Source: Occultella glacieicola
GTDB lineage: Bacteria > Actinomycetota > Actinomycetes > Actinomycetales > Beutenbergiaceae
Assembly: GCF_004353825.1 (NCBI RefSeq)
Contig: NZ_SMNA01000001.1
Location: 372,001 to 436,000 of the forward strand
Direction: 5' to 3'
DNA: 64,000 nt
The position numbers and the translations under genes are program-made. Shown in pieces: positions 1,721 to 26,159 of this stretch (position 1 is its first letter; every line of letters begins with the position of its first letter). A model generated the notes under the pieces. That model was not told the DNA's origin. It did no database searches and saw only the letters and a list, made by a program, of their open reading frames with translations.

Positions 1721-3004
1721 TCAGCGCTTCTCGATCAGGCCGACGACCTCGCAGGCGTAGTGCTGGGACGCCGTCATGGAACCACGGAACCACAGCACGG
1801 CGCGGGTGTCGGGGTCGCCCGGGACCACGATCGGGCGCAGGTTGTCGACGTCGGAGTTCTCGGTGACCGGCGTCCAGTCCCAGGACGCACCGCCGTCGGT
1901 GGTCCGGCCGTGGAAGATCTCGTGGTGGTCGAGCGCCGAGTCGTCGCGCGGGTCGATCGGGGTGGAGGCGTAGACCGAGTCCAGGTCGTAGGGGTCGATC
2001 GCGACCAGACCGGTGTAGTCCTCCTCGTGCGGGAGCAGAGCAGCGCCGGCCTTGGCGAGGTGGTGCACCTGCCAGGTTCCGCCGTCGAACGTGCCGTAGA
2101 AGAACCGGTGGTCGGAGAAGTCGCTGTTCTCCGGGTCGTCGCCGGCGCGGCCGGTGAGGATCGCCACGATCCGGCCGTCCGGCGCGCGGCGGAGGTCCGT
2201 GGTCCAGGCGTGCGTGATCGTGGCCCCCGCGAACTCCGAGCCGGCGGCCAGGATCGTGGTCAGCTCGACCTGGGACGGTGCCTGCTCGTCGAGGACCGGT
2301 CCGCCCACGACGGTGCCGTCACTGGCGTGCAGCGCGCCACCGGAGATGTACCCGTGGTAGATCGAGTTGTTGTAGTCGCGCGGGTGGTGGTCGGTGGTGA
2401 TCAGGTCGATCCGGTCGGTGCCGTTGCTGGCGTAACGGGTGTAGCCATTGACGTAGCCGATCTTGGGGCGGGTGAAGAGCTTGCCGCCGAAGTCGAACGT
2501 GGTGCCGTCATCGGTGGAGACCAGGATCGACGGGTCGTCGTTGATCGCACGCGCGAAGTTGTAGAGCCGGCCCTCGTCGCTGAGGTGGTGCAGGTTGGAG
2601 TAGGTGACCCCGCGCCCGTCGGTGAGGTCGGTCCAGTCGAAGGTCTGCTCGGGCTGCCAGGAGGTCGCGTCGTGCGCCTCGGTCGAGATCCGCCACCGGG
2701 TCAGGTTGTCGGTCTTGTGCTTGGTGTACATGGCCAGGTAGCGCCCGTCCGGGCGGATGAACAGGGCCGCCGTGTTGTGGTCGTCGGCCTCCAGTCGTTC
2801 GTGGAGCACGACCACCTCGGTGGTGCCCGTGGACAGGTCCACGACCGCGAGTTCCACATGGCCCGCGCGGTCCTCGCCGCCCGGGCCCTCCGGGGCCGGG
2901 ATCGAACCCACCAGGAGCGTGTTCGTGACCGGGTCGATGAGAGCGCGCTCGTCCTGGAACCAGCACCACGCGCCGTTGTCGTTGATGAGTTGCACCGTCG
3001 CCAT
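1721..3004 (-). CDS. BNR-4 repeat beta-propeller protein (putative glycoside hydrolase or lyase)
   Basis: MATVQLINDNGAWCWFQDERA, DDHN motif, Asp-box repeats STDDGTTF and TTDGGASW; true start inferred at 3004 rather than the ORF-track start. Confidence 0.8.
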   Translation of the reverse strand: MATVQLINDNGAWCWFQDERALIDPVTNTLLVGSIPAPEGPGGEDRAGHVELAVVDLSTGTTEVVVLHERLEADDHNTAALFIRPDGRYLAMYTKHKTDNLTRWRISTEAHDATSWQPEQTFDWTDLTDGRGVTYSNLHHLSDEGRLYNFARAINDDPSILVSTDDGTTFDFGGKLFTRPKIGYVNGYTRYASNGTDRIDLITTDHHPRDYNNSIYHGYISGGALHASDGTVVGGPVLDEQAPSQVELTTILAAGSEFAGATITHAWTTDLRRAPDGRIVAILTGRAGDDPENSDFSDHRFFYGTFDGGTWQVHHLAKAGAALLPHEEDYTGLVAIDPYDLDSVYASTPIDPRDDSALDHHEIFHGRTTDGGASWDWTPVTENSDVDNLRPIVVPGDPDTRAVLWFRGSMTASQHYACEVVGLIEKR

Positions 3005-3024
3005 GAACCCTGATCCTGCCAGGT

Positions 3025-3038
3025 GGATAGCCCTTTCC
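3025..3038. promoter_or_regulatory. Possible LacI-family operator upstream of the BNR-4 gene
   Basis: GGATAGCCCTTTCC resembles the palindrome GGAAAGCGCTTTCC. Confidence 0.35.
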
Positions 3039-10495: not shown

Positions 10496-12076
10496 TCAGC
10501 GCGCGCCGACCGGCTCCGACTCCGCCGCGGTGGCGTCGGAGGGCCGTGCTGTCCCTGCTGTCCCTGCTGTCCCTGCGGCCCGGCGCAGCACCAGGCCGAC
10601 CCCGACGGCGGTGAGCGCCGAGAGCACGACGCCCGCGACCGCCGTCGTCGCCATGCCGGAGGCGAACGCCTCCCGGGCGGAGGAGAGCAGTGCCGCACCC
10701 ACCGACGGGTCGGACTGGGCCCCCGCGACCTCGACGGCGCCGCCGAGCGTCTCGGTGGCCGCGGTCCGGTCGGCACCGGCCAGGGCGGCGGGCACCTCGA
10801 CCCGGGCGCGGTACATCGCCGAGGCGAGGCTACCCAGGATCGCGACCCCGAACGCCGAACCCAGCTCGTATGCGGTCTCGGAGATGCTCGACGCCGCGCC
10901 GGCCCGCTGCGGGGGCACCGCCGCGAGGATCGCGTCGTTGGTGAGGGTCTCGGTGAACCCGGCCCCGGCGCCGACCAGGACGAAGATCGCCACCAGGATC
11001 CCGATCCCGGTGTGGCCGGTGAGGGTGGTTCCGAGCAGGTAGCCGGCGCCCGAGACGGCGATGCCGAGCGGCACGAGCACATGCAGCGGCGCCCGTTCGG
11101 CGACGGCGGCGGCCAGCAACCCCATGCCCACCGTGGCCACCAGGCCCGGCAGCAGCCACAGGCCGGCGACCATCGGGCTCAGCCCGAGCACCAGTTGCAG
11201 GTACTGGGCGAGGAGGAACAGCAGCCCGGCCATGGCCAGGGCGGCGACCAGGTTCGCCACCACCGACGCCGCGAACACGGGCCGCTGGAACAGCCGCACG
11301 TCCAGCAGCGGGTCGGCTCGGCGCAGTTGCCGACGCACGAACAGGCCGCCGGCGGTCACCGCGACGACCGCCGGCACCAGGGCGAGCGGGACCAGACCGT
11401 CGTGCGCGACGGTCTTGACCGCGTACACGAGCGGCACCATCGTCAGGATCGACAGGGCCACGCTCACCAGGTCGAAGCGGCCCACGCGGGACCCGCGCGA
11501 CTCCGGCACCAGCAGTGGCGCCGCGATCAGGAAGATCACCAGCACCGGCACGTTGAGCAGGAACACCGAGCCCCACCAGAAGTGTTCGAGCAGCCAGCCG
11601 CCCACGATCGGGCCGAGCGCCGCCCCGCCGGAGAACCCGGCGGCCCACACCGCGATCGCGAACCGGCGCTCGCCGTCGTCGGTGAACACGTTCCGCAGCA
11701 GCGCGAGCGTGGCGGGCATCAGCGTCGCACCGAAGACCCCCATCGCGGCGCGGGCCGCGATCAGGTGCGTGGCGTCGGCGCTGAATGCGGCCCAGATGCT
11801 GACCAGGCCGAAGCCGGTGGCGCCGATCAGCAGCAGCCGGCGCCGGCCGAGCCGGTCGCCCAGGGTCCCCATCGTGACGAGCAGTCCCGCGAGCACCAGC
11901 GGGTAGATGTCCACGATCCAGAGCAGCTGGGTGGCGCTCGGCTGCAGGTCCCGGCTGAGCGCCGGCACGGCGAACGAGAGCACGGTGTTGTCGATGCTGA
12001 CGAGCAGCACCGGGAGCATGAGCGCGGCCAGGGCCAGCCAGCGCCGCTTGGGCGAGATGACCGGGGTCGTGTCCAT
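10496..12076 (-). CDS. DHA2 (14-TM) MFS drug efflux transporter, LfrA/QacA-like
   Basis: SIDNTVL, motif A GTLGDRLGRRR, LGPIVGG, ETAYELG. Confidence 0.92.
   Translation of the reverse strand: MDTTPVISPKRRWLALAALMLPVLLVSIDNTVLSFAVPALSRDLQPSATQLLWIVDIYPLVLAGLLVTMGTLGDRLGRRRLLLIGATGFGLVSIWAAFSADATHLIAARAAMGVFGATLMPATLALLRNVFTDDGERRFAIAVWAAGFSGGAALGPIVGGWLLEHFWWGSVFLLNVPVLVIFLIAAPLLVPESRGSRVGRFDLVSVALSILTMVPLVYAVKTVAHDGLVPLALVPAVVAVTAGGLFVRRQLRRADPLLDVRLFQRPVFAASVVANLVAALAMAGLLFLLAQYLQLVLGLSPMVAGLWLLPGLVATVGMGLLAAAVAERAPLHVLVPLGIAVSGAGYLLGTTLTGHTGIGILVAIFVLVGAGAGFTETLTNDAILAAVPPQRAGAASSISETAYELGSAFGVAILGSLASAMYRARVEVPAALAGADRTAATETLGGAVEVAGAQSDPSVGAALLSSAREAFASGMATTAVAGVVLSALTAVGVGLVLRRAAGTAGTAGTARPSDATAAESEPVGAR
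10547..10576. repeat. 9-bp tandem repeat (TGCTGTCCC x3.3) in the MFS C-terminal tail
   Basis: Perfect copies encoding AGTAGTAGT. Confidence 0.8.
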
Positions 12077-12123
12077 CGCGGTGGTTCCTTCGGAGTATCA
12101 GGATCGGGGTTCGGAGTTACTGT

Positions 12124-12137
12124 ACCGTCTGGACGGT
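12124..12137. promoter_or_regulatory. TetR operator between the divergent MFS and TetR genes
   Basis: ACCGTC-tg-GACGGT palindrome. Confidence 0.7.
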
Positions 12138-12160
12138 TTACCTGGCGATACACTGTGATC

Positions 12161-12673
12161 ATGTCCACAGCCAGGGAGCGCATCGTCGACGCGCTCGAGC
12201 GGGTCCTGATCGAGGAGGGGCCCGCCGCGGCGACCCTCGAACACGTCGCGGAGGGGGCGGGGGTCTCCAAGGGCGGGCTGCTCTACCACTTCGGGAGCAA
12301 GGAGGCGCTGTTCGAGGGCCTGCTCGGCCGGCTCACCGACTCCTCGCAGGACCCTGCGCCCGCGACCGATGCCCGCGGCGCCATCACCGAGTACCTGCGC
12401 CTGTCCATGGTCGCCGACGACGCGTTCAGCACCACCCTGCTGGCCGCACTACGACTCGTCGGTGCCCCCGGCGTCGACGTGCCCGCGGCGCTCTCCGCCG
12501 CGAGCGAGCAGTGGTTCGAGCAGGTCCGCCCGCACATCGCCGACCCCGTGACGGCACGCCTGATCCAGCTCGTGGGGGACGGGCTCTACCTGAACGCCCT
12601 GATCTCCGCCCCGGCCAGCCCGCATGACGACGCCGTGATCGCGCGGCTGCTCGGCGAGGTCGAGCCGCACTGA
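12161..12673 (+). CDS. TetR/AcrR family regulator
   Basis: ATLEHVAEGAGVSKGGLLYHFGSKEAL; TACACT -10 lies 6 nt upstream. Confidence 0.93.
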   Translation: MSTARERIVDALERVLIEEGPAAATLEHVAEGAGVSKGGLLYHFGSKEALFEGLLGRLTDSSQDPAPATDARGAITEYLRLSMVADDAFSTTLLAALRLVGAPGVDVPAALSAASEQWFEQVRPHIADPVTARLIQLVGDGLYLNALISAPASPHDDAVIARLLGEVEPH

Positions 12674-12686
12674 CCGCCCCGGCGAC

Positions 12687-14132
12687 TCAGTCCAGGTGCG
12701 CGACCAGCCGCTGCGCGAGGCCGGTGTAGGAGCCCGGGGTCAGGTCCAGCAGCCGAGCCTCGACATCGCCCGGCAGCCCGAGCCCACCGATGAACTCGCG
12801 CATCGCGGCCCGGTCAACCCGGCGCCCGCGGGTCAGCTCCTTGAGCCGCTCGTACGGGTCGGCCATGCCCTCGGCACCGGCCACGGCTGCCGCACGCATC
12901 GCGGACTGCACCGCCTCCCCGAGCACCTCCCAGTTGCCGTCCAGGTCCCGGGCCATCGCCTCGGCGTCCACGTCCAGCCCGGCCAGACCGCGGCGCACGT
13001 TGTCCAGCGCGAGCAGCGAGTGCCCGAACGCGACGCCGATGTTGCGCTGGGTGGTGGAGTCGGTCAGGTCGCGCTGCAGCCGGGAGGTCACCAGGGTGGA
13101 GGCGAGAGTGTCCAGCAGCGCGCAGGAGACCTCCAGGTTCGCCTCCGCGTTCTCGAAACGGATCGGGTTCACCTTGTGCGGCATCGTCGAGGACCCGGTG
13201 GACCCCTGCGCGGACAGCCGCTGCTTGAAGTACCCGAGGGAGATGTAGGTCCACACGTCGGTGGCCAGGTTGTGCAGCACCCGGTTGAACCGGGCCACGT
13301 CCGCGTACAGCTCGGCCTGCCAGTCGTGGCTCTCGATCTGGGTGGTGAGCGGGTTCCAGGTGAGGCCGAGACCGGTCACGAACTCCCGGGCCACCGCCTC
13401 CCAGTCCGCGCCGGGTACCGAGATCGCGTGGGCGCCGTAGGTGCCGGTGGCGCCGTTGATCTTGCCGAGGAACTCGGCGCCCTCGACCCGACTCAGCTGC
13501 CGCCGCAGCCGGTGCGCGAGCACGGCCAGCTCCTTGCCGAGAGTCACCGGCGTGGCCGGCTGGCCATGCGTGCGAGCCAGCATCGGCACCGCGGCGTTCG
13601 CGCGGGCCAGGTCCGCGACGGCATCGGCGACCGTGTGCGCGGCCGGCAGCCACGCCTGCCCGACGGCGGAGCGCACCGTGAGGGCGTAGGCCAGGTTGTT
13701 GATGTCCTCGCTCGTGCAGAAGATGTGCACGATCTCGGTCACGTCCGGAAGGACGGTCTCACCGAGCGCCTCGGGGGCGGCGGCGAGCCGCCGCTTGAGG
13801 AAGTACTCCACCGCCTTGACGTCGTGCAGGGTCTCCCGCTCGATCTCGGCCAGTTCGGCGATCTCGGCGGAACCGAACGTGGCCACGACGTCGCGCAGGT
13901 AGGCGACCTCCGCCGTCGACAGGCTCGGCGCTCCCGGCAGCACCACGCCGGTGGTCAGGTGGATCAGCCACTCGACCTCGACGTGCAGCCGGGACCGATT
14001 CAGGGCCGCCTCGGAGAGGTGGTCCACGAGAGGGGCGACCACGGGGCGGTAACGCCCGTCGAGCGGGCCCAGCGCGATCGGCGGGGTGATGGCGGCCAGG
14101 TCGGCGAGGTCGGTGCGAGGGCGTGAGGGCAT
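12687..14132 (-). CDS. purB: Adenylosuccinate lyase
   Basis: LDGRY, HDVKAVEY, TSEDINN, RTHGQPA, GSSTMPHKVNP. Confidence 0.97.
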   Translation of the reverse strand: MPSRPRTDLADLAAITPPIALGPLDGRYRPVVAPLVDHLSEAALNRSRLHVEVEWLIHLTTGVVLPGAPSLSTAEVAYLRDVVATFGSAEIAELAEIERETLHDVKAVEYFLKRRLAAAPEALGETVLPDVTEIVHIFCTSEDINNLAYALTVRSAVGQAWLPAAHTVADAVADLARANAAVPMLARTHGQPATPVTLGKELAVLAHRLRRQLSRVEGAEFLGKINGATGTYGAHAISVPGADWEAVAREFVTGLGLTWNPLTTQIESHDWQAELYADVARFNRVLHNLATDVWTYISLGYFKQRLSAQGSTGSSTMPHKVNPIRFENAEANLEVSCALLDTLASTLVTSRLQRDLTDSTTQRNIGVAFGHSLLALDNVRRGLAGLDVDAEAMARDLDGNWEVLGEAVQSAMRAAAVAGAEGMADPYERLKELTRGRRVDRAAMREFIGGLGLPGDVEARLLDLTPGSYTGLAQRLVAHLD

Positions 14133-14191
14133 GGCGTCATTCTTCCAGAGCCCGGTGAACGGGCCGGCAGCGTCTCGCGCGTCGGCGCCGG

Positions 14192-15076
14192 TCAGTCCGG
14201 GCTCACGTCCTGCTCGGGCACGAACCGCGCCGTCTCCAGGCCGTACCGGCGCACGCGGTCGAAGTAGGCGGTCGGGGTGAGGCCGACGAAGCGATGGAAC
14301 GCACGGGTCAGATGCGACTGGTCGTAGTAGCCGGCGGCCGCGGCGAGCTCGCTCCAGATGACCCCGGGGACGGGCGTGTCGCCGCCGTCGCCCACCTGCC
14401 CGGCGCCGGCGGCGAGGGCGGCCGCGGTCAGTCGCTCGAGCAGCCCGTGCAGCCGCTGCAGGTCGGCGAAGGCCTTCGGGGTGACGCCGCACGCGCGGCG
14501 GAACCGGGCCACGAGTGCCGGTGCCGAGACGCCCGCCCGCGTCGCCACGTCGCCCACTCGCGGCTGCGGATCGGCGCCGAACGACGCCAGGGCCGTCCGA
14601 ACGACGGGATCGGGGCGCCAGGCCACCTCGAGCCGGTCCCGCAGACCCGCGACCACCGCGTCGAGGGCGGTACCGGGGTCGACATCCGGCCGGAGCCGGC
14701 GCAGGCCCGGGAAGCCGTCGACCTCATGCACCCCACCGGCCAGCCGCTGGGGATCCAGGCCGACCGCCCGCAGGGCGTCCGGGCGCAGCCGCGCACCGAC
14801 GTTCGCGACCAGTCCACCGTTCGAACTGATCGTGGCCTCATCGGTGAGCCCGGCGACGAACGGGCCACGGAGCAGATGCCAGCCATCGGCCCGGCGGACG
14901 CCGTAGGGCTGCACCGTCAGCGGCACGATGAACGGCACGTCCGTGGCCGGCAGGATCCGCTCGAACCGGGTCGGTGCCACGGTCCGCACGAACCACAGGC
15001 CCGTGAGGACCCCCGCCAGATCTGCGGGCGCTGCTCGCTCGACGAATGCTGAGGCCGGCTCCGGCTCGGGAGGCAT
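14192..15076 (-). CDS. AraC family regulator
   Basis: RFRRACGVTPK and WSELAAAAGYYDQSHLTRAF. Confidence 0.9.
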   Translation of the reverse strand: MPPEPEPASAFVERAAPADLAGVLTGLWFVRTVAPTRFERILPATDVPFIVPLTVQPYGVRRADGWHLLRGPFVAGLTDEATISSNGGLVANVGARLRPDALRAVGLDPQRLAGGVHEVDGFPGLRRLRPDVDPGTALDAVVAGLRDRLEVAWRPDPVVRTALASFGADPQPRVGDVATRAGVSAPALVARFRRACGVTPKAFADLQRLHGLLERLTAAALAAGAGQVGDGGDTPVPGVIWSELAAAAGYYDQSHLTRAFHRFVGLTPTAYFDRVRRYGLETARFVPEQDVSPD

Positions 15077-15123
15077 GAAGAATATCCAAGCCCATCCGCC
15101 GCGCCGGCGCCTACCGTTGCCAC

Positions 15124-15558
15124 ATGACCGCAGCCATCGACACGCGGGTGCTGATCCGAGCCCCGCGGGACCGAGTATGGGACCTCCTCACCGACTTCAC
15201 CCGTGCCCACGAGTGGATGACCGAGGCGACGGACATGCGCCTGGACGACGCCACGCTGGCGGTGGGGAGCGTGTTGAGGTTCCGTGCGCAGAACACCGAG
15301 CGCACCTCGACGGTCGAGGCGCTCGAACCCGGCCGGATGATCGCGCTCGCGAGCGACGGCCCCGGCGTGCACGCCGTCTACACCTACACGTTGACCGATC
15401 GCGACGGCGGCACCGAGGTCCACCTCGTCGCCGACGTCACGGCCAGGGGGCCGATGAAGGCCTTCGGTCCGGTGATCCGCAGGTCGATCGCGAACGCCGA
15501 CGGCGGTCAGCTCGAGGCGTTGGCACACCTGCTCACGACCAACGACAACGCCGCCTGA
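15124..15558 (+). CDS. SRPBCC/polyketide cyclase family protein
   Basis: IRAPRDRVWDLLTD..W, GGTEV; divergent from the AraC gene. Confidence 0.85.
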   Translation: MTAAIDTRVLIRAPRDRVWDLLTDFTRAHEWMTEATDMRLDDATLAVGSVLRFRAQNTERTSTVEALEPGRMIALASDGPGVHAVYTYTLTDRDGGTEVHLVADVTARGPMKAFGPVIRRSIANADGGQLEALAHLLTTNDNAA

Positions 15559-15571
15559 GCCGGCCCAGCAC

Positions 15572-16369
15572 TCACACGTACGCGTCGGCGGCCCGGACGG
15601 CGGCGTCGGCGTAGGCGCTGCCGAACAGCACCGTGTGCACCAGCAACGGATTCAGGTGGTGCAGCGCGACCCGGTCCGGCCAGCCGTCGGCGAGCGGGGA
15701 GACCTCCTGGTAGCCGTCGAGGATCTCGTCCAGGAACGGTGCCCCGAACAGGTCGAGCATGGCCAGGTCGGTCTCGGCGTGCCCGCCGTGTGCGGTCGCG
15801 TCGATCAGCACGGCCTCACCACCCGAGTCGGCATCCCAGAGCACGTTGCCGTTCCACAGGTCGCCGTGCAGGCGGGCGACGGCGTGCCCACCCGCGCCCG
15901 CGCGCTCGCGCACGAGGGCCGGCTGGTCGTGCTCGAGGTCACCGGCCACGAGCCGGGCGGCGACCGCCTCGACCCTCGCAGCGCCGTCGGGAGTGATCGA
16001 GCCCTGCTCGACGGCGGTGCGCAGGAACGGCAGCACGCGTGTAGTCGCGTAGAACTCGCCCCAGCGCAGGCCCGGGGCGCTCGGTCCGGGCATCGGCCCC
16101 TGGGCCATGAAGCCGGCGGTGCGGCCCGGCACCTGACCGACATGGTCGGCGCCGGCGGCGTGGGTGCGGGCCAGTGCGGCGCCGAACGCGCGGGCCGCGG
16201 CGGCGGAGGCCGGCCCGGACCGGACCGACTCCAACTCGAGCACCCCGGGCCGCACGCCGTGCACCCGGACCACCCGGGCGCCGTCGGGAACCTGCGCCAG
16301 CCAGCGCAGGCCGTCGGCCTCGGCGACCGCGGCGTCCGGATCCGGGAACCGGGTCTTGCGCCAGCTCAC
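15572..16369 (-). CDS. Fructosamine kinase family protein
   Basis: EADGLRWL, LHGDLWNGN, GHAETDLAML. Confidence 0.92.
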   Translation of the reverse strand: MSWRKTRFPDPDAAVAEADGLRWLAQVPDGARVVRVHGVRPGVLELESVRSGPASAAAARAFGAALARTHAAGADHVGQVPGRTAGFMAQGPMPGPSAPGLRWGEFYATTRVLPFLRTAVEQGSITPDGAARVEAVAARLVAGDLEHDQPALVRERAGAGGHAVARLHGDLWNGNVLWDADSGGEAVLIDATAHGGHAETDLAMLDLFGAPFLDEILDGYQEVSPLADGWPDRVALHHLNPLLVHTVLFGSAYADAAVRAADAYV

Positions 16370-16851
16370 GCGAGCCGTTCGCGCACGTGCGCGACGACAC
16401 CCGGCGCAGCGGCGCTGATCTGGGCGTAGCTGACCTCGAAGTCGCGGCGGTCGCCGTAGTAGGGGTCGGCCACCTCGTCGTCCTCGCGGTCGGCGTCGAA
16501 GCTGCGCAACAGGCGGACCTTCTCCTGCGCGGCGGGGTCCGGGGTGAGCCGGCGCAGGGCGTCGACGTGGCTCTGGTCCAGGGCCAGGATCAGGTCCGCG
16601 TCGGCGAAGTCCGGTGGCGCGAAACGGCGGGCGCGGTGGTCGGTGAGCGTGTGCCCGTTCTCGGTCAGCACGGAGAGGGCTCGGTGGTCCGCGTCCTCAC
16701 CGAGGTGCCAGTCCCCGGTGCCGGCGGAGAACACCCGGACGGCGTCGGTGAGTCCGGCGTCGGCGATCGCGTCCCGGATCACCACCTCGCCGATCGGGGA
16801 GCGGCAGATGTTCCCGGTGCACACGACGGCGATCGTGAAGAGGTCGGCCAT
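16366..16851 (-). CDS. Low-molecular-weight protein-tyrosine phosphatase
   Basis: CTGNICRS, SAGTGDWH, DPYYG. Confidence 0.95.
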   Translation of the reverse strand: MADLFTIAVVCTGNICRSPIGEVVIRDAIADAGLTDAVRVFSAGTGDWHLGEDADHRALSVLTENGHTLTDHRARRFAPPDFADADLILALDQSHVDALRRLTPDPAAQEKVRLLRSFDADREDDEVADPYYGDRRDFEVSYAQISAAAPGVVAHVRERLA

Positions 16852-16929
16852 GCCAGCCATTGTGGCCATGGCGGCGACCGACCGCACCCAGGCACGGGCC
16901 ATGGCGACAGGTTGCGCCGACCGACGCCG

Positions 16930-17669
16930 TCAGCCGGGCCGGCCGGGTTGGTCCTGGTCGTGGGCGGCGCGGAGGTCGTCGTAGGCGGCGTCGGCGGCCG
17001 AGGAGAGGTCGGCCTCGCTGGGGATCGCCTCGCGAAGGCCTCGGGGAAGGGTCTCGTCGAGCAGGAAGTCCTGCAGGCGGGTCATCAGCGCTTGCTCGGC
17101 GACGGGACCCGTGAGGTCGAGGAAGTCCAGCACGTACGGGTCGCGGGTGAGCTGTTGGGCGAGCTCGGAGTCCGCGGCCGGCAGGCGGGCCGGGAAGTTC
17201 GACGGCGCCGCCCGGTGCGGGTGTGCAGGCGGTTCATGATCTGGTTCAGCAAGACGTTGCGGGACCAGCCGTGCTCGACTGCGGCCGTGGCGTACCAGTC
17301 CCGCTCGGACGTCTCATCGAGCTTGTCCAGGAGCACGGTGATGTGGCCCCAGGGCAACTGCGCAACAGGCTGTTGCGCGACCTCGTCGGGCCAGGTGTTC
17401 GCGAACGTGCGCATGTAGACGAGGTTGCGCTGGGAGAGGCCGCGCATCTGCGGAAATTCTTCCCGCAGGTCGGTGGAGAGTCGAGCGATGACACGTGTGC
17501 TCCAGCCTTCGACGCCCTGCCTCTCCAGAATCGTCCGGCCGAGCCGCCCGTACAGGCCGACGAGTTCGGTGTTCACCACCCGCTGTGCCCGCCAGCGCGC
17601 CTCGGCGACGGTTCGCTTCAGGTCGTCGAGCAGTCGTGGGTAGTCGTCGGGAAGGTTCTTGTAGTCCAC
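16930..17669 (-). pseudogene. YhcG/DUF1016 (PD-(D/E)XK nuclease) pseudogene
   Basis: DUF1016 N-domain (VNTELVGLY, RGLSQRNLVYMR, LPWGH, GWSRNVL); frameshift near 17212 into AAPSNF..RDPYVLDFL; nuclease core is missing. Confidence 0.8.
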
Positions 17670-17751
17670 AGGGCAGGAGGCGGTGCAGTCGGGTGCACCG
17701 GTGCCGGCACCCACGCATTGGGGGCGGGAGCGGGTGCCTAGCGTCGTGGCC

Positions 17752-18054
17752 ATGAGAGCCTCACCCTCGCCCATGTTTGCCTCGCCCGGACTGCCCGGCG
17801 GCGCCGCGTCCGCCCTCCTGGCCGCGGCCGCCGAGCAGATCCGCCTCGGCCGGGCCGCTTACGCCGCCGTGCTGCCGGAGCACTGGGAGTCCCCGGCCGC
17901 CCTTGCCTACCGGCGCCGGATCGACGCGCTGACCTCGGCCGCCGACCGGCTCGCCGGGACGCTCGACGGTGCGGCCGCGGCGGCCCGGGTCCACGAGAAC
18001 CAGAGCGCCGCGGTCCGGGCGGCGCTCGCCGGCCCCGCCATGACCCCGCGATGA
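17752..18054 (+). CDS. Small Ala-rich helical protein, WXG100-like
   Basis: 100 aa with central WESPAA; TAGCGT -10 lies 7 nt upstream; ATGA overlap with the next gene. Confidence 0.6.
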   Translation: MRASPSPMFASPGLPGGAASALLAAAAEQIRLGRAAYAAVLPEHWESPAALAYRRRIDALTSAADRLAGTLDGAAAAARVHENQSAAVRAALAGPAMTPR

Positions 18055-19615: not shown

Positions 19616-20008
19616 TCAGCGGGTCTGCTTCTTCTTCCCGGAGGGGAGGATGACGCTCAGGATCACCGCGATGATCGAGATCACCAGGGCTGCCAGCACC
19701 GCCGACCAGAACCCGTCGACCGTGAGGCCGTAGTTCGTGAACGAGGTCAGCCACGTGGTGAGCATCAGCATCAGGGCGTTCACGACCAGGTGGAAGAGCC
19801 CGAGGGTCAGGATGTAGAACGGGATCGACAGGACCTGCACGATCGGTTTGACGACCGCGTTCACGAGGGTGAAGACCAACGCGACCACCGCCACCACGAT
19901 CAGGGTGCCGAGCGGCGTGCCGTCGGTGGCCAGTTCCAGCCCGGACAGCCACAACGAGGTCAGCCAGATGGCGATCCCGTTGATGATCACTCTGATGACG
20001 AAGCTCAT
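19616..20008 (-). CDS. 4-TM phage holin family (superfamily IV) membrane protein
   Basis: VNAVVKP, ILTLGLFHLVVNALML, VDGFWSA. Confidence 0.88.
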   Translation of the reverse strand: MSFVIRVIINGIAIWLTSLWLSGLELATDGTPLGTLIVVAVVALVFTLVNAVVKPIVQVLSIPFYILTLGLFHLVVNALMLMLTTWLTSFTNYGLTVDGFWSAVLAALVISIIAVILSVILPSGKKKQTR

Positions 20009-20109
20009 GCCTCGATCCTGCCATGCGCGCTCGCCGGATGGCAGGTGCGACGTGGCCCCGGCCGTGGGGGATGCGTGCATCCGTTCGCGCGCACGGGCAT
20101 GCTGGGCGA

Positions 20110-21252
20110 ATGGCATCGCGCATCCCCGGACCCCCCGCCTTCGACGCCCCGGCGCCGCCCCCGGAGGCACCGCCGGTGCGACTGCGCAAGGAACTCCTGG
20201 ACCTGCCCGCGCACGTGCCCGGGGCCGTCGGCGCCACGGCAGCCGTGTTCAAGCTCTCCGCCAACGAGCTGCCGTTCCCGCCGCTGCCCGCGGTGATCGC
20301 GGCCATCCACGACGCCGCCGAGGACGTGAACCGCTACCCCCAGGTGTACGGCGCCCGGCTGCTGCGGGCGATCGCGAGCCACCACGGCGTGGTCGAGGAC
20401 CAGGTGCTGATCGGCAACGGGGCGGTCGCGCTCGCCGAACTGCTGATCCGCTCGACGTGCGCACCCGGCGACGAGGTGGTGCACCCGTGGCGGTGCTTCG
20501 AGGCCTACCCGGCCGTGGCCCGGGCGAGTGGGGCGGTCGGCGTGCCGGTGCCCCTGAGTCCGGACGGCAGCCACGACCTGGCCGCGATGGCCGTCGCCGT
20601 CACCGACCGCACCCGGGTGATCGTGGTGGCCACGCCTGCGGACCCCACCGGGGCCTCCCTCACCCACACCGACCTGCTCGCCTTCCTCGAGGTGGTGCCG
20701 AGCGACGTCATGGTGATCCTGGACGAGTCCTACGTCCAGTTCGACCGCACCGCAGATGCGATCGACTCCCGCGCCTTGTTGCCCGTCCACAAGAACGTGG
20801 TGGTGCTGCGGACCTTCTCGAACGCCTACGGCCTGGCCGGCCTGCGGATCGGCTATGCCCTGGCTCGGCGACGACTGGTGCGGGTGCTGCGGCGGGTGTC
20901 CACCCCGTTCGGGGTCAGCGACCTCGGCCAGGTGGCGGCCATGGCTGCCCTCGGGCAGACGGCACTGGTCGAGTCCCGAGTGGCGGAACTGGTCGCCGAG
21001 CGGGACCGGGTCGTGGCGGCGCTGCGTAGCCAGGGCTGGGATGTCGGCGACCCCCAGGGCAACTTCTACTGGCTGCCGCTCGGCGAGCACAGCTCCCTGT
21101 TCGCCAAGGACGCCGTGCAGTCCGGCATCACCGTGCGCCCGTTCCCGGGCGAGGGGGTGCGGATCTCGATCGGCGAGCCCGAGGCGAACGACATCGCACT
21201 CGCCGTCGCGTCCCGGTGGGTGCACCGGCGCACGGGCAGGGGCGACGAGTAG
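20110..21252 (+). CDS. Pat/HisC-like class I/II aminotransferase homolog lacking the catalytic lysine
   Basis: KLSANE, NRYP, LRTFSNAYGLAGLRIGY (N where K is expected), VRPF, GVRISIG. Confidence 0.88.
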   Translation: MASRIPGPPAFDAPAPPPEAPPVRLRKELLDLPAHVPGAVGATAAVFKLSANELPFPPLPAVIAAIHDAAEDVNRYPQVYGARLLRAIASHHGVVEDQVLIGNGAVALAELLIRSTCAPGDEVVHPWRCFEAYPAVARASGAVGVPVPLSPDGSHDLAAMAVAVTDRTRVIVVATPADPTGASLTHTDLLAFLEVVPSDVMVILDESYVQFDRTADAIDSRALLPVHKNVVVLRTFSNAYGLAGLRIGYALARRRLVRVLRRVSTPFGVSDLGQVAAMAALGQTALVESRVAELVAERDRVVAALRSQGWDVGDPQGNFYWLPLGEHSSLFAKDAVQSGITVRPFPGEGVRISIGEPEANDIALAVASRWVHRRTGRGDE

Positions 21253-21363
21253 ACTTCGAGCACGCCCCGACCGGGCACCTCAGGTAGCTCTTCACCGACG
21301 CAGAGTTGGAGGTATCCAACAAAAACGACCCCGCGACGTGGTGGATCGTCCGAACCCACAAGT

Positions 21364-21392
21364 TACGGTCCCGTAGCCTACGCTGGCGTAGG
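21364..21392. promoter_or_regulatory. Tandem TACG-N4-CGTA palindromes upstream of the dehydrogenase operon
   Basis: TACGgtccCGTA at 21364-21375 and CCTACGCtgGCGTAGG at 21377-21392. Confidence 0.55.
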
Positions 21393-21442
21393 TTGCACGT
21401 CGCGAACCATTGATCCACACATCCACACGAATGGAGTTCGGT

Positions 21443-22594
21443 GTGATTCAGTCCGACATCCACGGGGAGACCCCCCACGTCGGCACACAGGATGACGACC
21501 TCATCCAGTTGCTCACCGTCACCGGCGAGCGCGTGCACCATCAGACGTATTCATCCCGAGTCGCCCACCTCGACACCGAGGCCCTCGAGGGCCTCTACCG
21601 CGACATGGTCCTGGTGCGCCGGTTCGACACCGAGGCCACCGCACTGCAGCGGCACGGCGAGCTCGGACTCTGGCCCCAGTGCCTCGGCCAGGAGGCCGCC
21701 CAGATCGGCTCCGGCCGGGCGCTCGCCGCCCAGGACCACGTGTTCCCCTCCTACCGGGAGCACGGTGTCGGCTGGACCCGCGGCCTGGACCTGCGCAAGG
21801 TCCTGCACCAGTTCCGTGGCGAGGACCACGGCGGCTGGGACCCGGCCGAGCACAACTTCTCCCTCTACACCCTGGTGATCGGCTCGCACGCCCTGCACGC
21901 GACCGGCTTCGCCATGGGCGTGCAGCGCGACGGTGACGTCGGCACCGGTGACCCCGACCGCGACCGCGCCGTGGTCGCCTACTTCGGTGACGGCGCCACC
22001 TCCCAGGGGGACGTGAACGAGGCGCTCGTCTTCGCGGCCGTCAACGACGCCCCGGTGGTCTTCTTCTGCCAGAACAACCACTGGGCGATCTCCGAGCCCA
22101 CCGAGCGGCAGAGCCGGGTCCCCCTGTTTCGCCGGGGCTCCGGGTTCGGCGTGCCGGCCGTGCGCGTGGACGGCAATGACGTGCTGGCCTGCTACGCCGT
22201 GACCCAGGAGGCCCTCGAGCGCGCCCGCAGCGGGGGTGGCCCCACGTTCATCGAGGCCGTCACCTACCGGATGGGGGCGCACACGACCTCCGACGATCCG
22301 ACCCGCTACCGCAGCCGGGCCGAGGAGGACTACTGGCGCACCCGCGACCCGATCGACCGGCTCCGACTGCACCTGGTCGCCGAGGGTACGGCGCCCGAGT
22401 TCTTCACCGCCCTGGACGCCGAGGCCGACGCCTACGGAGAACAGATCCGCGACTACTGCCGGTCCATCCCCAAGGCGGAATCGTCCCGGATGTTCGAGCA
22501 CGTCTACGCCGCCGAGCACACCCTCGTGGAGTCCGAGCGAGCCTGGTTCACCGAGTACGAGGCAGGCTTCGCCACGGAAGGAGCGCAGCGATGA
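21443..22594 (+). CDS. pdhA: 2-oxoacid (pyruvate/branched-chain) dehydrogenase E1 alpha
   Basis: GQEAAQ, TPP motif GDGATSQG..NN, HTTSDDP; start could be 21431. Confidence 0.93.
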   Translation: MIQSDIHGETPHVGTQDDDLIQLLTVTGERVHHQTYSSRVAHLDTEALEGLYRDMVLVRRFDTEATALQRHGELGLWPQCLGQEAAQIGSGRALAAQDHVFPSYREHGVGWTRGLDLRKVLHQFRGEDHGGWDPAEHNFSLYTLVIGSHALHATGFAMGVQRDGDVGTGDPDRDRAVVAYFGDGATSQGDVNEALVFAAVNDAPVVFFCQNNHWAISEPTERQSRVPLFRRGSGFGVPAVRVDGNDVLACYAVTQEALERARSGGGPTFIEAVTYRMGAHTTSDDPTRYRSRAEEDYWRTRDPIDRLRLHLVAEGTAPEFFTALDAEADAYGEQIRDYCRSIPKAESSRMFEHVYAAEHTLVESERAWFTEYEAGFATEGAQR

Positions 22595-23607
22595 GCGAGA
22601 ACACCGGCACCCAGCGGATCCCGATGGCGAAGGCCATCAACCTCGGGCTGCGCCGCTCCATGGAGCGGGACGACAAGGTCCTGCTCATGGGCGAGGACAT
22701 CGGTCGCCTCGGTGGGGTGTTCCGGGTGACCGATGGCCTGCAGAAGGACTTCGGCACCACCCGGGTGGTCGATACCCCGCTCGCCGAGTCCGGCATCATC
22801 GGCACCGCGATCGGCCTCGCACTCGCCGGCTACCGCCCGGTCTGCGAGATCCAGTTCGACGGCTTCATCTTCCCCGCCTACGACCAGATCACCACCCAGC
22901 TGGCCAAACTGCACTACCGCTCCCGCGGACGCGTCGAGCTGCCGGTCGTCATCCGGGTCCCGTACGGCGGCGGCATCGGGGCCGTGGAACACCACAGCGA
23001 GTCGCCCGAGGCGCTCTTCGCCCACACCGCGGGCCTGCGACTGGTCAGCCCGGCCAACCCGGCGGACGCGTTCACGATGATCCAGCAGGCCATCGCGTCC
23101 CCGGACCCGGTGCTCTTCCTCGAACCGAAGGCCCGGTACTGGGACAAGGCGGACGTGGACGTGACCGCGGCGGACCAGGTCCTCGACCTCGGCGGCGGGA
23201 ACGGACTGCACCGGGCCCGCGTGGTGCGCCCGGGCACCGACCTGACGATCGCCGCGTACGGGCCGACGGTCGCGACCGCGATGGCCGCGGCGACGGTGGC
23301 CGAGCAGGAGGGGCACAGCGTCGAGGTCATCGACCTGCGTTCGATCTCCCCGATCGACTTCGACACGATCGCGGACTCGGTGCGCCGCACCCACCGGTTG
23401 GTGGTGGCGCACGAGGCCCCCGTGTTCTTCGGGGCCGGCGCCGAGATCGCGGCCCGGATCACCGAGCAGTGCTTCTACTCCCTCGAGGCGCCGGTGCTGC
23501 GGGTGGGTGGATTCCACGCGCCGTACCCGGTGGCCAACATCGAGGAGGACTACCTGCCGAACCTGGACCGGGTCCTGCACGCCGTCGACGCCGTTCTGGC
23601 GCACTGA
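22591..23607 (+). CDS. pdhB: 2-oxoacid dehydrogenase E1 beta
   Basis: GEDIG..GGVFRVT, DTPLAESGI, EHHSESPE. Confidence 0.95.
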   Translation: MSENTGTQRIPMAKAINLGLRRSMERDDKVLLMGEDIGRLGGVFRVTDGLQKDFGTTRVVDTPLAESGIIGTAIGLALAGYRPVCEIQFDGFIFPAYDQITTQLAKLHYRSRGRVELPVVIRVPYGGGIGAVEHHSESPEALFAHTAGLRLVSPANPADAFTMIQQAIASPDPVLFLEPKARYWDKADVDVTAADQVLDLGGGNGLHRARVVRPGTDLTIAAYGPTVATAMAAATVAEQEGHSVEVIDLRSISPIDFDTIADSVRRTHRLVVAHEAPVFFGAGAEIAARITEQCFYSLEAPVLRVGGFHAPYPVANIEEDYLPNLDRVLHAVDAVLAH

Positions 23608-23639
23608 GCCGCGCGACCGCGCAGAACTGGAGTTCAGCC

Positions 23640-25106
23640 ATGCCGAAATACCTCGAGTTCCGTCTCCCGGACGTGGGGGAGGGCCTGACCGAGGCCGACA
23701 TCGTGGCCTGGAAGGTCGCCGTCGGCGACGTCGTGACGGTGAACCAGGCGCTCGTCGAGATCGAGACGGCCAAGTCGCTCGTGGAGCTGCCGAGCCCGCA
23801 CGCGGGCGTCGTCAGCAGGCTCCTGGTCGAGTCCGGCGCGACCGTCGAGGTGGGCACGCCGATCGTCGTGATCGACACAGATCCCGACGGCGAAGCGGAG
23901 CCCGACGGCGCCTCGCCCGCCGTCGCGAGTGGTTCCGGTGGGTCGGCCGACGGCGATGCCGTCGCCGACGACGAGACGAGCGGCGACGTACTGGTCGGGT
24001 ACGGCACGAAGCACGCGGCGGCGGCCCGCCGCCCCCGCCGGGCCGCCGAGCCGGCGGAGACGCCGACCTCCCAGGCCGCACCCTCCCCCCAGCCGGCACC
24101 CGCACCCGCGGCGCCCACCCCCGCGCCGCCGTCGGGCCCTGCGCCCGTGAGCCGCCCCACGGCCGGGGTGAGCGTGGACGCCGGAGCTGCTGCGCCGTCG
24201 TCGACCGTGCTCGCCAAGCCGCCGGTCCGCAAGCTCGCCAAGGATCTCGGGATCGACCTGAACCGGGTGCCGGGCACGGGCCCCGGCGGCATCATCACCC
24301 GTGGCGACGTGGAGGCCGCGGCCGAGCGGTCCGAACCCGAGCGCCAGGCCAGCTACCCCGCGGACGACCGGCCCTGGCTCGACGGCGGGGTGGTGTCCGC
24401 GGACGGGCGCCAGACCCGGGTGCCGGTGCGCAGTGTGCGGGCCCGGACCGCGGAGGCCATGGTCGCGTCCGCGTTCACGGCGCCGCACGTCACCGTCTTC
24501 CAGACCGTGGACGTGACGAAGACGATGAAGCTCGTGGCCCGCCTGAAGGAGGACCGCGACTTCGCCGACACCAGGGTCACGCCGCTGCTGATCGCGGCGA
24601 AGGCCCTGATCCTCGCGATCCGCAGGCACCCGACGATCAGTGCGGCGTGGGACGACGCGACCCAGGAGATCGTCTACAAGCACTACATCAACCTGGGGAT
24701 AGCCGCGTCCACGCCGCGCGGGCTGGTGGTGCCGAACATCAAGGACGCGCACCGGATGAACCTGCACGAGCTCGCGGTGGCCCTCGGGGACCTCACCGCT
24801 ACGGCCAGGGCCGGGAGGACCACGCCCGCGGCGATGAGCGACGGGACGGTCACCATCACCAACGTCGGGGTCTTCGGGATCGACACCGGCACCCCGATCC
24901 TGAACCCGGGGGAGTCGGCGATCCTGGCGTTCGGGGCCATCAGCGAGCGCCCGTGGGTGCACCACGGCAAGATCAAGCCGCGCTGGGTCACCCAGCTCGC
25001 CCTGTCGATGGACCACCGGCTCATCGACGGCGAGCTCGGGTCCCGGGTCCTGGCGGACACCGCGCGCACGCTGGCGGACCCGGCCCAGGGGCTGATCTGG
25101 GGCTGA
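23640..25106 (+). CDS. pdhC: Dihydrolipoamide acyltransferase E2
   Basis: Lipoyl domain LPDVGEG..ETAKS, AKPPVRKLA binding domain, DHRLIDG. Confidence 0.93.
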   Translation: MPKYLEFRLPDVGEGLTEADIVAWKVAVGDVVTVNQALVEIETAKSLVELPSPHAGVVSRLLVESGATVEVGTPIVVIDTDPDGEAEPDGASPAVASGSGGSADGDAVADDETSGDVLVGYGTKHAAAARRPRRAAEPAETPTSQAAPSPQPAPAPAAPTPAPPSGPAPVSRPTAGVSVDAGAAAPSSTVLAKPPVRKLAKDLGIDLNRVPGTGPGGIITRGDVEAAAERSEPERQASYPADDRPWLDGGVVSADGRQTRVPVRSVRARTAEAMVASAFTAPHVTVFQTVDVTKTMKLVARLKEDRDFADTRVTPLLIAAKALILAIRRHPTISAAWDDATQEIVYKHYINLGIAASTPRGLVVPNIKDAHRMNLHELAVALGDLTATARAGRTTPAAMSDGTVTITNVGVFGIDTGTPILNPGESAILAFGAISERPWVHHGKIKPRWVTQLALSMDHRLIDGELGSRVLADTARTLADPAQGLIWG

Positions 25107-25550: not shown

Positions 25551-26117
25551 CTAGCCCAGGGGCACTATGACCTCCTGGGGCTGTCCGCCGGGTACGTCTA
25601 GCGCGGGATCATATGTCGCTTCCAGAATCACCTCGACACCGGACCCCGCCATAGGGGCAACGGTGGCGCCGTTGCACAGGAGTGCCCGAGTGCGCCCAGC
25701 TCCCTCCATCAAGCCGGTTGACGGGTTGAAGCCCACAGGAAAGATGACCGAAGCGTAGCCGGCGCCCTGGTAGGTTCCGGCCTTGCAGATCAGCGCCGCG
25801 GTGTTGGCGTGGTAGTTCGTGTTCCAGCCGCTCGTCCAGACTGACGTGGCCGAGCGACCGTTGGTCAGATCCCTGAGCTGAGCCCTGATGCTGATCGACG
25901 GCACTGCAGCGGTGCAGTTGACCTTGACCGCGACATTGATCGTGCCGCCGACGTGGCTCGAGTTGTGCGGGTCGTTGACCGATAGGTGACACGTGATCAC
26001 TGCTCCTCCGGGACCGGTCGCAGCCTCCGCTGGCGCTGCTGACATGAACCCGATCGTCAAGGCCAAGAGTGCGCCGAGGACCGCCCCGACGCCTCGGCGT
26101 CGTACTCTTCCATGCAT
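25551..26117 (-). CDS. Secreted hypothetical protein with four cysteines
   Basis: GGGGAGA SD; signal peptide RVRRR..SAAPAEA; ITC, VNC, LIC, LLC. Confidence 0.7.
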   Translation of the reverse strand: MHGRVRRRGVGAVLGALLALTIGFMSAAPAEAATGPGGAVITCHLSVNDPHNSSHVGGTINVAVKVNCTAAVPSISIRAQLRDLTNGRSATSVWTSGWNTNYHANTAALICKAGTYQGAGYASVIFPVGFNPSTGLMEGAGRTRALLCNGATVAPMAGSGVEVILEATYDPALDVPGGQPQEVIVPLG

Positions 26118-26159
26118 TGAATCTCCCCATTCCTTCATTGATGCAGCGATCGTCTTCGA

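Follow-up and report, generated by a model that had tools for sequence, protein, structure and literature searches.

An open reading frame at 20110..21252 on the + strand of the window (the whole stretch of Occultella DNA that was analysed, 64,000 nucleotides long) encodes a 380-residue protein (P0001) that is by descent the single Pat/ArAT (PRK03321) orthologue of its genome and that has lost the Schiff-base lysine of this family of aminotransferases. The catalytic residue is gone from a gene that is itself intact and under purifying selection, and the product is in this sense a pseudoenzyme. Twelve near-invariant columns of the family alignment changed on the genus stem and then froze. The protein, referred to below as Occultella Pat, probably has a new job, most likely small-molecule binding rather than the old reaction, and the databases, which name these proteins histidinol-phosphate or phenylalanine transaminases, are probably mistaken about them throughout the genus. 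The genus was assigned as Occultella from named proteins that are 92% identical.

A Pat orthologue and its altered pocket

The frame is open throughout with a GC3 of 0.937, in keeping with the original prediction of an intact gene with high GC3. Its product scores 426 bits against NCBIfam PRK03321, above the cut-off of 374, and 256 bits against the hisC model TIGR01141, under the cut-off of 276.55; in Pfam it matches PF00155 with 187 bits and the DegT family PF01041 with just 24.8 bits over residues 85-174. An alignment-based fold model (pLDDT 91.5; a single-sequence fold with a pLDDT of 44.7 was set aside) has 4R2N as its top Foldseek match, with an rmsd of 1.4 Å and 44% identity, and the M. 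tuberculosis ArAT Rv3772 (4R2N) is the closest solved relative by sequence as well as by fold. Residues were mapped on the 4R2N alignment, in which the chain numbering is the native numbering plus one. Within the source genome the frame is the only Pat-level tblastn match, the next being HisC with 29% identity. Occultella Pat shares with Rv3772 (4R2N/4R5Z; C. glutamicum AroT) the subfamily, the fold and the equivalents of the Val86, Phe110 and Phe246* pocket residues, here Val106, Phe130 and Phe267; Phe130 is of the Phe110 type and not the tyrosine of HisC. The pat gene tree agrees with the species tree and the locus is ancestral, as expected of an orthologue; a horizontal origin is ruled out, as the tree groups the gene with the family orthologues at an ancestral locus. 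A Lys-bearing relative, P0004, is 64% identical. Outside the sequenced genomes, the ESM Atlas returned ordinary ArAT clusters only, and a metagenome scan gave a top match of 64% and, in the 80 loci retained out of 410, no other copy at genus level. A class-wide short-pattern scan of 400 genomes gave 17 matches outside the window, none of them an aminotransferase.

The codon at 20821..20823 (+) is AAC, as had been read from the sequence, so that RTFSNAYG contains Asn238, which aligns with Lys217 of 4R2N; the same codon is AAC in 4/4 Occultella genomes and AAG in the three outgroups displayed. Unlike Rv3772, Occultella Pat cannot form an internal aldimine, and the two proteins differ further at the Asn157 (Asp), Tyr15 (His) and Ser85 (Ala) positions. 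In all, twelve columns that are at least 95% conserved in 144 relatives are altered and fixed in the genus, namely Y35H, S51A, M79V, S105A, S129C, I135A, C174A, N177A, N178D, A207S, K238N and V247I. His35 (20212..20214, +) belongs to the N-terminal lid and corresponds to M. tuberculosis Tyr15; Ala174, Ala177 and Asp178 (20629..20643, +) replace Cys, Asn and Asn of the family; and the changes at 51, 79, 105, 129, 135, 207 and 247 lie in the span 20260..20850 (+) together with the retained site residues Tyr76, Gly104, Phe130, Asp205, Tyr208, Thr235, Ser237 and Arg246. Ala105 occupies the Ser85 position. Asp178 occupies that of Asn157, which we take to be the equivalent of Asn194 in AAT, and the same Asn-to-Asp change is found in a separate Lys-less Pat clade. 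The departures exceed chance: Occultella Pat deviates at 10 of the 80 columns that are at least 97% conserved in the 144 relatives, and each of these relatives, when left out in turn, deviates at 0-4 of the same columns (mean 0.75).

Not all of these changes carry equal weight. The original prediction had listed HVPG, GNGAV, TPADPTG and DESY as deviant motifs, and all are where it placed them; Thr175, however, is what close relatives normally have, and the truly derived changes in the TPADPTG segment are C174A, N177A and N178D. Five of the genus-fixed changes (S51A, M79V, S129C, I135A and V247I) were absent from that list. Among 150 distant Pat representatives alanine recurs at 51 (in 15), at 105 (in 11) and at 174 (in 12), for which reason S51A, S105A and C174A are regarded as mild; alanine at the GxGS serine, seen in those 11, is also found in a plant HisC. 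In the same set Asp178 occurs once, and His35, Ala177, Ser207 and Asn238 are absent from the residues listed per column. The only lysines in Occultella Pat are 27, 48, 228 and 333, which are ancestral or variable, and none is new near the site in sequence.

The remainder of the pocket is unchanged. Seven of the nine subfamily I-beta residues named by Nasir et al. (PMC4703992) are kept, those lost being the Asn157 and Lys217 equivalents, and all seven (the equivalents of Gly84, Pro158, Asp184, Tyr187, Arg225, Gly227 and Arg330) are invariant across the genus, as are 13/13 retained site residues. Both carboxylate arginines (Arg322 and Arg330 equivalents) and the Phe110 equivalent are present, as are the residues that act in trans, Tyr54*, Pro245* and Phe246* (Tyr76, Pro266 and Phe267). 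The claim that the changes cluster at cofactor contacts is therefore too simple, as most contacts are untouched, among them the phosphate cup and Phe130, Asp205 and Tyr208 as well as the two carboxylate arginines. That the phosphate cup, Asp205, Tyr208 and Phe130 are frozen argues that the pocket is apparently still in use, although buried residues can remain conserved through folding alone, which weighs against the reading favoured below.

Constraint within the genus and distribution of the gene

A codon model of our own (GY94 type, F61), applied to the tree of the four genomes, gives pat an omega of 0.035, next to 0.034 in E1alpha, 0.025 in E1beta and 0.109 in ptpA, within a range of 0.015-0.109 across 14 genes of the region; for pat, omega equal to 1 is rejected with an LRT of 449 (a value of 1873 for E2 resembles an optimiser failure and was disregarded). 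Relaxed selection, the outcome that would have counted against repurposing, is thus not seen. In the pairwise comparison of G000 and G001 the omega of pat (0.049) is close to the median of 254 ORF pairs (0.050) and to hisC (0.053), and its identity of 91.8% lies at the 68th percentile of the ORF pairs, with hisC at 92.1%; this control derives from 284 ORFs in 21 stretches, covers 0.42 of 5.6 Mb and includes some shadow ORFs. The ratio of Pat distance to neighbour distance is 0.98-1.08 inside the genus versus 1.15-2.3 in eight outside pairs. At the 12 derived codons there are no amino-acid changes within the genus and synonymous changes in four, and omega equal to 1 is rejected (2dL 71-74). The same picture emerges without a codon model: given that 68 of 163 fourfold sites are variable, about 10 of 24 first and second positions would be expected to vary, and none does. 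Codon bias is 0.68 for pat versus 0.685 for hisC, and no stop or frameshift interrupts the gene in 4/4 Occultella genomes. As had been proposed, the gene is not in random decay; it is retained genus-wide with its derived sites frozen.

Events on the stem are less clear. In the protein tree the Occultella Pat stem is long (0.327 versus 0.097 for neighbouring genes) and the crown slow. The stem omega of 0.077 versus a background of 0.046 is not significantly higher (p 0.41), and the E1alpha and E1beta stems show a similar rise; positive selection on the genus stem thus lacks statistical support, in a comparison whose power is low, since deep dS in these GC-rich genes is near saturation. Constraint on Occultella Pat after the change is evident, whereas positive selection during the change is not.

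The distribution of the asparagine is that of the genus. A pat search matched 51 of 61 genomes at E<=1e-30, and when 30 loci were aligned with 119 proteins, some of them entered twice, the lysine site held Lys in 144 rows and Asn in five (four Occultella genomes and P0002). The change is therefore clade-wide, with Asn in 4/4 genus genomes and Lys in 144/144 other close relatives, and neither a strain-private change nor, as was anticipated, a sequencing error, the same codon being present in four independent assemblies. Six of the nine members of a 92%-identical cluster were checked and 6/6 have Asn, two of them being JGI/IMG records. A canonical pat elsewhere in the genome was also looked for: each of the 4/4 Occultella genomes has one Pat, which rules out a duplicate freed by a canonical paralogue.

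In genus g6 the gene is absent, as 0/10 genomes (seven of these at least 98% complete) have a pat over the cut-off. This genus, whose place an earlier tree had left unsettled, groups as sister of Occultella with a support of 0.85 once RpoC is added, and is thus the probable sister genus. IlvE, PheA, AceE, YggS and PdxS are present in 5/5 genomes tested. In C. glutamicum, phenylalanine is described as needed only by the ilvE aroT double mutant (PMC8070496), which explains how a lineage can do without Pat catalysis. That the protein makes up for missing B6 genes is ruled out by the presence of YggS and PdxS in 5/5 genomes, and a link to phenylacetate catabolism by the finding of paaA in just 2/36 family genomes, so that its occurrence fails to follow Pat status. 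One genome of the pat-less genus has two ilvE copies in tandem (G031:C1:3160951-3163083). At another locus (L043, G013:C1:1523442-1524665) the pat match is split in two, with about 170 bp between the parts, in a single open frame on the strand opposite E1alpha, for which a local inversion, an insertion or an assembly fault are candidate readings.

The locus and other lysine-less relatives

Downstream of pat on the + strand are E1alpha (21434-22594), E1beta (22591-23607) and E2 (about 23640-25106), identified by a TIGR03181 score above the cut-off and by Pfam. Together 21434..25106 encode an alpha2beta2 2-oxoacid dehydrogenase, probably of the branched-chain type, the substrate being predicted from sequence; a separate AceE exists beside these genes, and mycobacterial pdhABC has been re-annotated as bkdABC, according to PMC3920632. 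On the other side is a divergent gene for a Phage_holin_4_2-family membrane protein (19616..20008, -; PF04020), an ancestral neighbour found in the same place in Lys-bearing relatives. The original prediction tied the protein to the dehydrogenase operon, a link that the comparison does not sustain: at 16/17 non-genus loci, with Lys verified in 15, pat is upstream of an E1alpha gene that shares its strand, so the neighbourhood was inherited from an active enzyme, and the operon survives without pat in 10/10 g6 genomes. Since the adjacency is ancestral and common to Lys-bearing enzymes, it does not speak for a scaffold. The pat-E1alpha gap varies from about 150 to 5500 bp across loci.

Two short elements flank the gene. 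In the pat-E1alpha gap a near-palindrome, GTTACGG-TC-CCGTAGC (21362..21377, no strand assigned), probably serves the dehydrogenase operon as an operator and does not depend on pat; its strict pattern occurs in 13/40 loci, two of these in the pat-less genus, and the palindrome TACGG-N2-CCGTA is conserved ahead of the E1alpha gene across the family. It was not assigned as a BkaR operator, being only loosely like the GTTA(N)T(N4)A(N)TAAC given in PMC3920632. Upstream, GGCATGCT (20096..20103, +) stands 6 nt ahead of the ATG and is probably a leaderless -10 inherited from the Lys-bearing orthologues. Such an element had been claimed from the start; a sigma-70 consensus scan gave 0 sites, but the presence of the element in 18/30 upstream windows displayed, Lys-bearing orthologues among them, supports the start codon and shows that it is inherited rather than peculiar to the genus.

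Elsewhere around the locus, a sugar-ABC-like cluster was seen by eye upstream of E1alpha in 6/7 g6 loci with ORFs listed (nine were fetched), and in L081-L086 (about 10900-17200) it stands, with a ROK-like regulator, where other genera have pat. In the window, a DUF1016 N-terminal domain gene (17085-17774, -) looks truncated and is frameshifted or fragmentary in G001-G003 too, and an ORF at 25551-26138 (-) with a GC3 of 0.75, a signal-peptide-like start and no Pfam match, absent from related loci, is probably a recent insertion.

Lys-less Pats have arisen elsewhere. Of the 150 distant Pat representatives 149 have Lys; P0276 is the only one without it and the only one with Asp at 157. Its 119 best homologues comprise 116 with Lys/Asn, two with His/Asp and one with Ala/Asn, and in a 28-row tree P0276, P0279, P0280 and P0352 form one Streptomyces/Nonomuraea clade. 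This clade resembles Occultella Pat in its Pat origin, the loss of Lys, the Asn-to-Asp change at 157 (in 3/4) and the retention of the Asp184, Tyr187, Arg225 and Arg330 equivalents. It differs in having His (two members) or Ala at the Lys site, in being a sporadic extra copy (one genome checked also has a higher-scoring Pat) and in its independent origin, as a single clade joining the two is rejected (AU p 2e-7). The loss of Lys together with Asn-to-Asp thus arose twice in Pat, a convergence that is suggestive and not proof, because there are two events only and AAC-to-GAC is an easy GC-ward transition. At L136:2263-3420 the second-clade gene follows an HTH-regulator-like ORF and lies near methyltransferase-like and MFS-like ORFs, as judged by eye.

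When 185,579 species genomes were scanned by exact motif for a codon other than Lys with C or T as its last base, a search whose counts are lower bounds, at least 21 loci emerged: two in Occultella, 10 in Acidobacteriota (His, Leu or Ile), five that bear Phe (Myxococcales, Nannocystaceae and similar labels), two in Bacillota (His), one in Bacteroidota (Ala) and one in Nonomuraea (His). The 18 non-actinobacterial loci keep Asn157 in 17 cases and have His at the Lys site in 12. The Acidobacteriota set (L120, L125-L129, L134, L135, L138 and L139; match at 3001-3035) is mostly Terriglobia and HisC/PtaA-like; most have an N-terminal SRRxFL twin-arginine-like signal, and they may possibly be exported Lys-less B6 proteins. 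The Phe-bearing loci (L121, L124, L131, L133 and L140), which include related MAGs, are HisC-like with TYSKVP at the ring-stacking position. L122, L123 and L130 are the Bacillota HisC-like loci with His and the Bacteroidota locus with Ala; L123, with His, is over the hisC cut-off.

A probable change of function

Repurposing, as first proposed, is the best reading of a gene under purifying selection with frozen derived sites, although the proposed scaffold link to the dehydrogenase operon is not retained. Sequence and model evidence does not discriminate between sensor, scaffold and B6-binding roles. The explanation tentatively favoured here, which we hold with something less than confidence, is that Occultella Pat is a transamination-dead homodimer that would bind a B6 vitamer or an amine non-covalently, as a non-catalytic small-molecule binder. 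A vertically inherited Pat/ArAT would have lost its activity on the genus stem, its catalysis being dispensable since IlvE and HisC may cover aromatic transamination; the probable sister genus g6 deleted pat. The pocket would then have been remodelled: without Lys neither an internal aldimine nor a 1,3-proton shift would be possible, and Asp in place of Asn157 would lie beside O3'/N4', while the lid carries His for Tyr and the side chains at 79 and 135 are smaller. Since then, the purifying selection described above has acted on this altered pocket, on the phosphate cup and on the residues lent to the partner subunit. The homodimer may hold PMP or a PLP-amine adduct, with the ammonium or a protonated O3' paired with Asp178; alternatively the ligand may be a free aromatic amino acid or amine, and the role that of a buffer or sensor. 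Removal of the lysine in AAT K258A is described as costing 10^8-fold in activity, and Lys mutants of this kind frequently retain non-covalent PLP binding and the ability to make external aldimines (PMC6424897). Like the engineered AAT K258A, Occultella Pat is a fold-type-I aminotransferase without the active-site Lys in which non-covalent cofactor binding is plausible; unlike it, the protein is natural, genus-fixed, under purifying selection and altered at 11 further positions of the pocket region. As AAT Asn194 is reported to hydrogen-bond the deprotonated O3' (PMC9430417), Asp178 may repel B6 rather than hold it, and by analogy it could either pair with a PMP ammonium or protonated O3', or shut B6 out. 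With YggS and PdxS present, B6 homeostasis shows no gap that a new binder would have to fill, and neither a partner nor a regulon of Occultella Pat came to light.

The protein may instead be a ligand-free structural or regulatory partner that acts by way of its surface, either on E1/E2 (a small share of this option) or on HisC, in a heterodimer of which it would be the inactive half; we consider this unlikely but worth weighing. Its conservation over the whole protein equals or exceeds that of the enzyme orthologues, Tyr76, Pro266 and Phe267, which serve in trans, are kept, there is a precedent in SPT1 for SPT2 (PMC6148460), and Asp178 may exclude B6. Yet the residues that act in cis, of no use to a partner's site, are just as frozen, the adjacency to E1/E2 was inherited, all g6 genomes have the operon but no pat, and HisC is only 29% identical. 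SPT1/LCB1 of serine palmitoyltransferase is likewise a Lys-less fold-type-I subunit kept by selection (PMC6148460), but it arose beside an active paralogue and is without further cis catalytic residues, whereas Occultella yielded no active Pat paralogue and its Pat retains the cis residues.

It is improbable, though conceivable, that the protein performs a new Lys-independent B6 chemistry, with PMP or PLP held non-covalently and Asp178, His35, Cys129 or the substrate amine as acid/base. The residues that anchor PLP are for the most part retained, three ionisable residues are newly fixed, and His stands at the Lys site in two second-clade Pats and in 12/18 non-actinobacterial matches. The 3-dehydratases ColD, E1 and SpnQ, which according to PMC8987622 are PMP-dependent, also have an aminotransferase fold without the catalytic Lys. 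These known Lys-less enzymes, however, have a catalytic His at that position and belong to the sugar-aminotransferase branch with NDP-sugar substrates; the Asn of Occultella Pat cannot serve as a base, and no pathway genes arrived alongside in a neighbourhood that is ancestral. A functionless relic in slow decay is very improbable and already largely refuted: loss in the probable sister genus indicates that the gene is dispensable in near kin and many changes are GC-ward, but the intact reading frames, the low omega, the hisC-like codon bias and the retained start signal all count against decay. A still-active aromatic-amino-acid transaminase with a low rate or a substitute base, as the score above the PRK03321 cut-off, the intact fold and the status of sole Pat might suggest, is least credible of all, given that both the Lys217 and Asn157 equivalents are replaced, that no new lysine lies near the site in sequence and that K258A is so costly to AAT.

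It is also possible, if doubtful, that the loss of Lys with Asn157-to-Asp is a recurrent two-step switch from Pat to a Lys/His-independent B6 enzyme or a dedicated PMP/amine binder, with at least two actinobacterial origins. Occultella holds a fixed, single-copy version of this Lys-less Pat state. Pseudoenzymes and Lys-less PLP folds are kinds already known; the literature search (titles and the beginnings of abstracts, with few subscription journals) found no report of Occultella Lys-less Pat or of the second clade. The genus is a clear example from nature of an enzyme being retained once its key residue had gone, with no gene duplication involved; the list of 12 changes is short and Lys-bearing P0004 is a ready control. 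Were B6 or amine binding, or Lys-free catalysis, to prove true, it would widen the range of functions of fold-type-I PLP proteins, and the repeated Asn-to-Asp change would provide a search signature for others.
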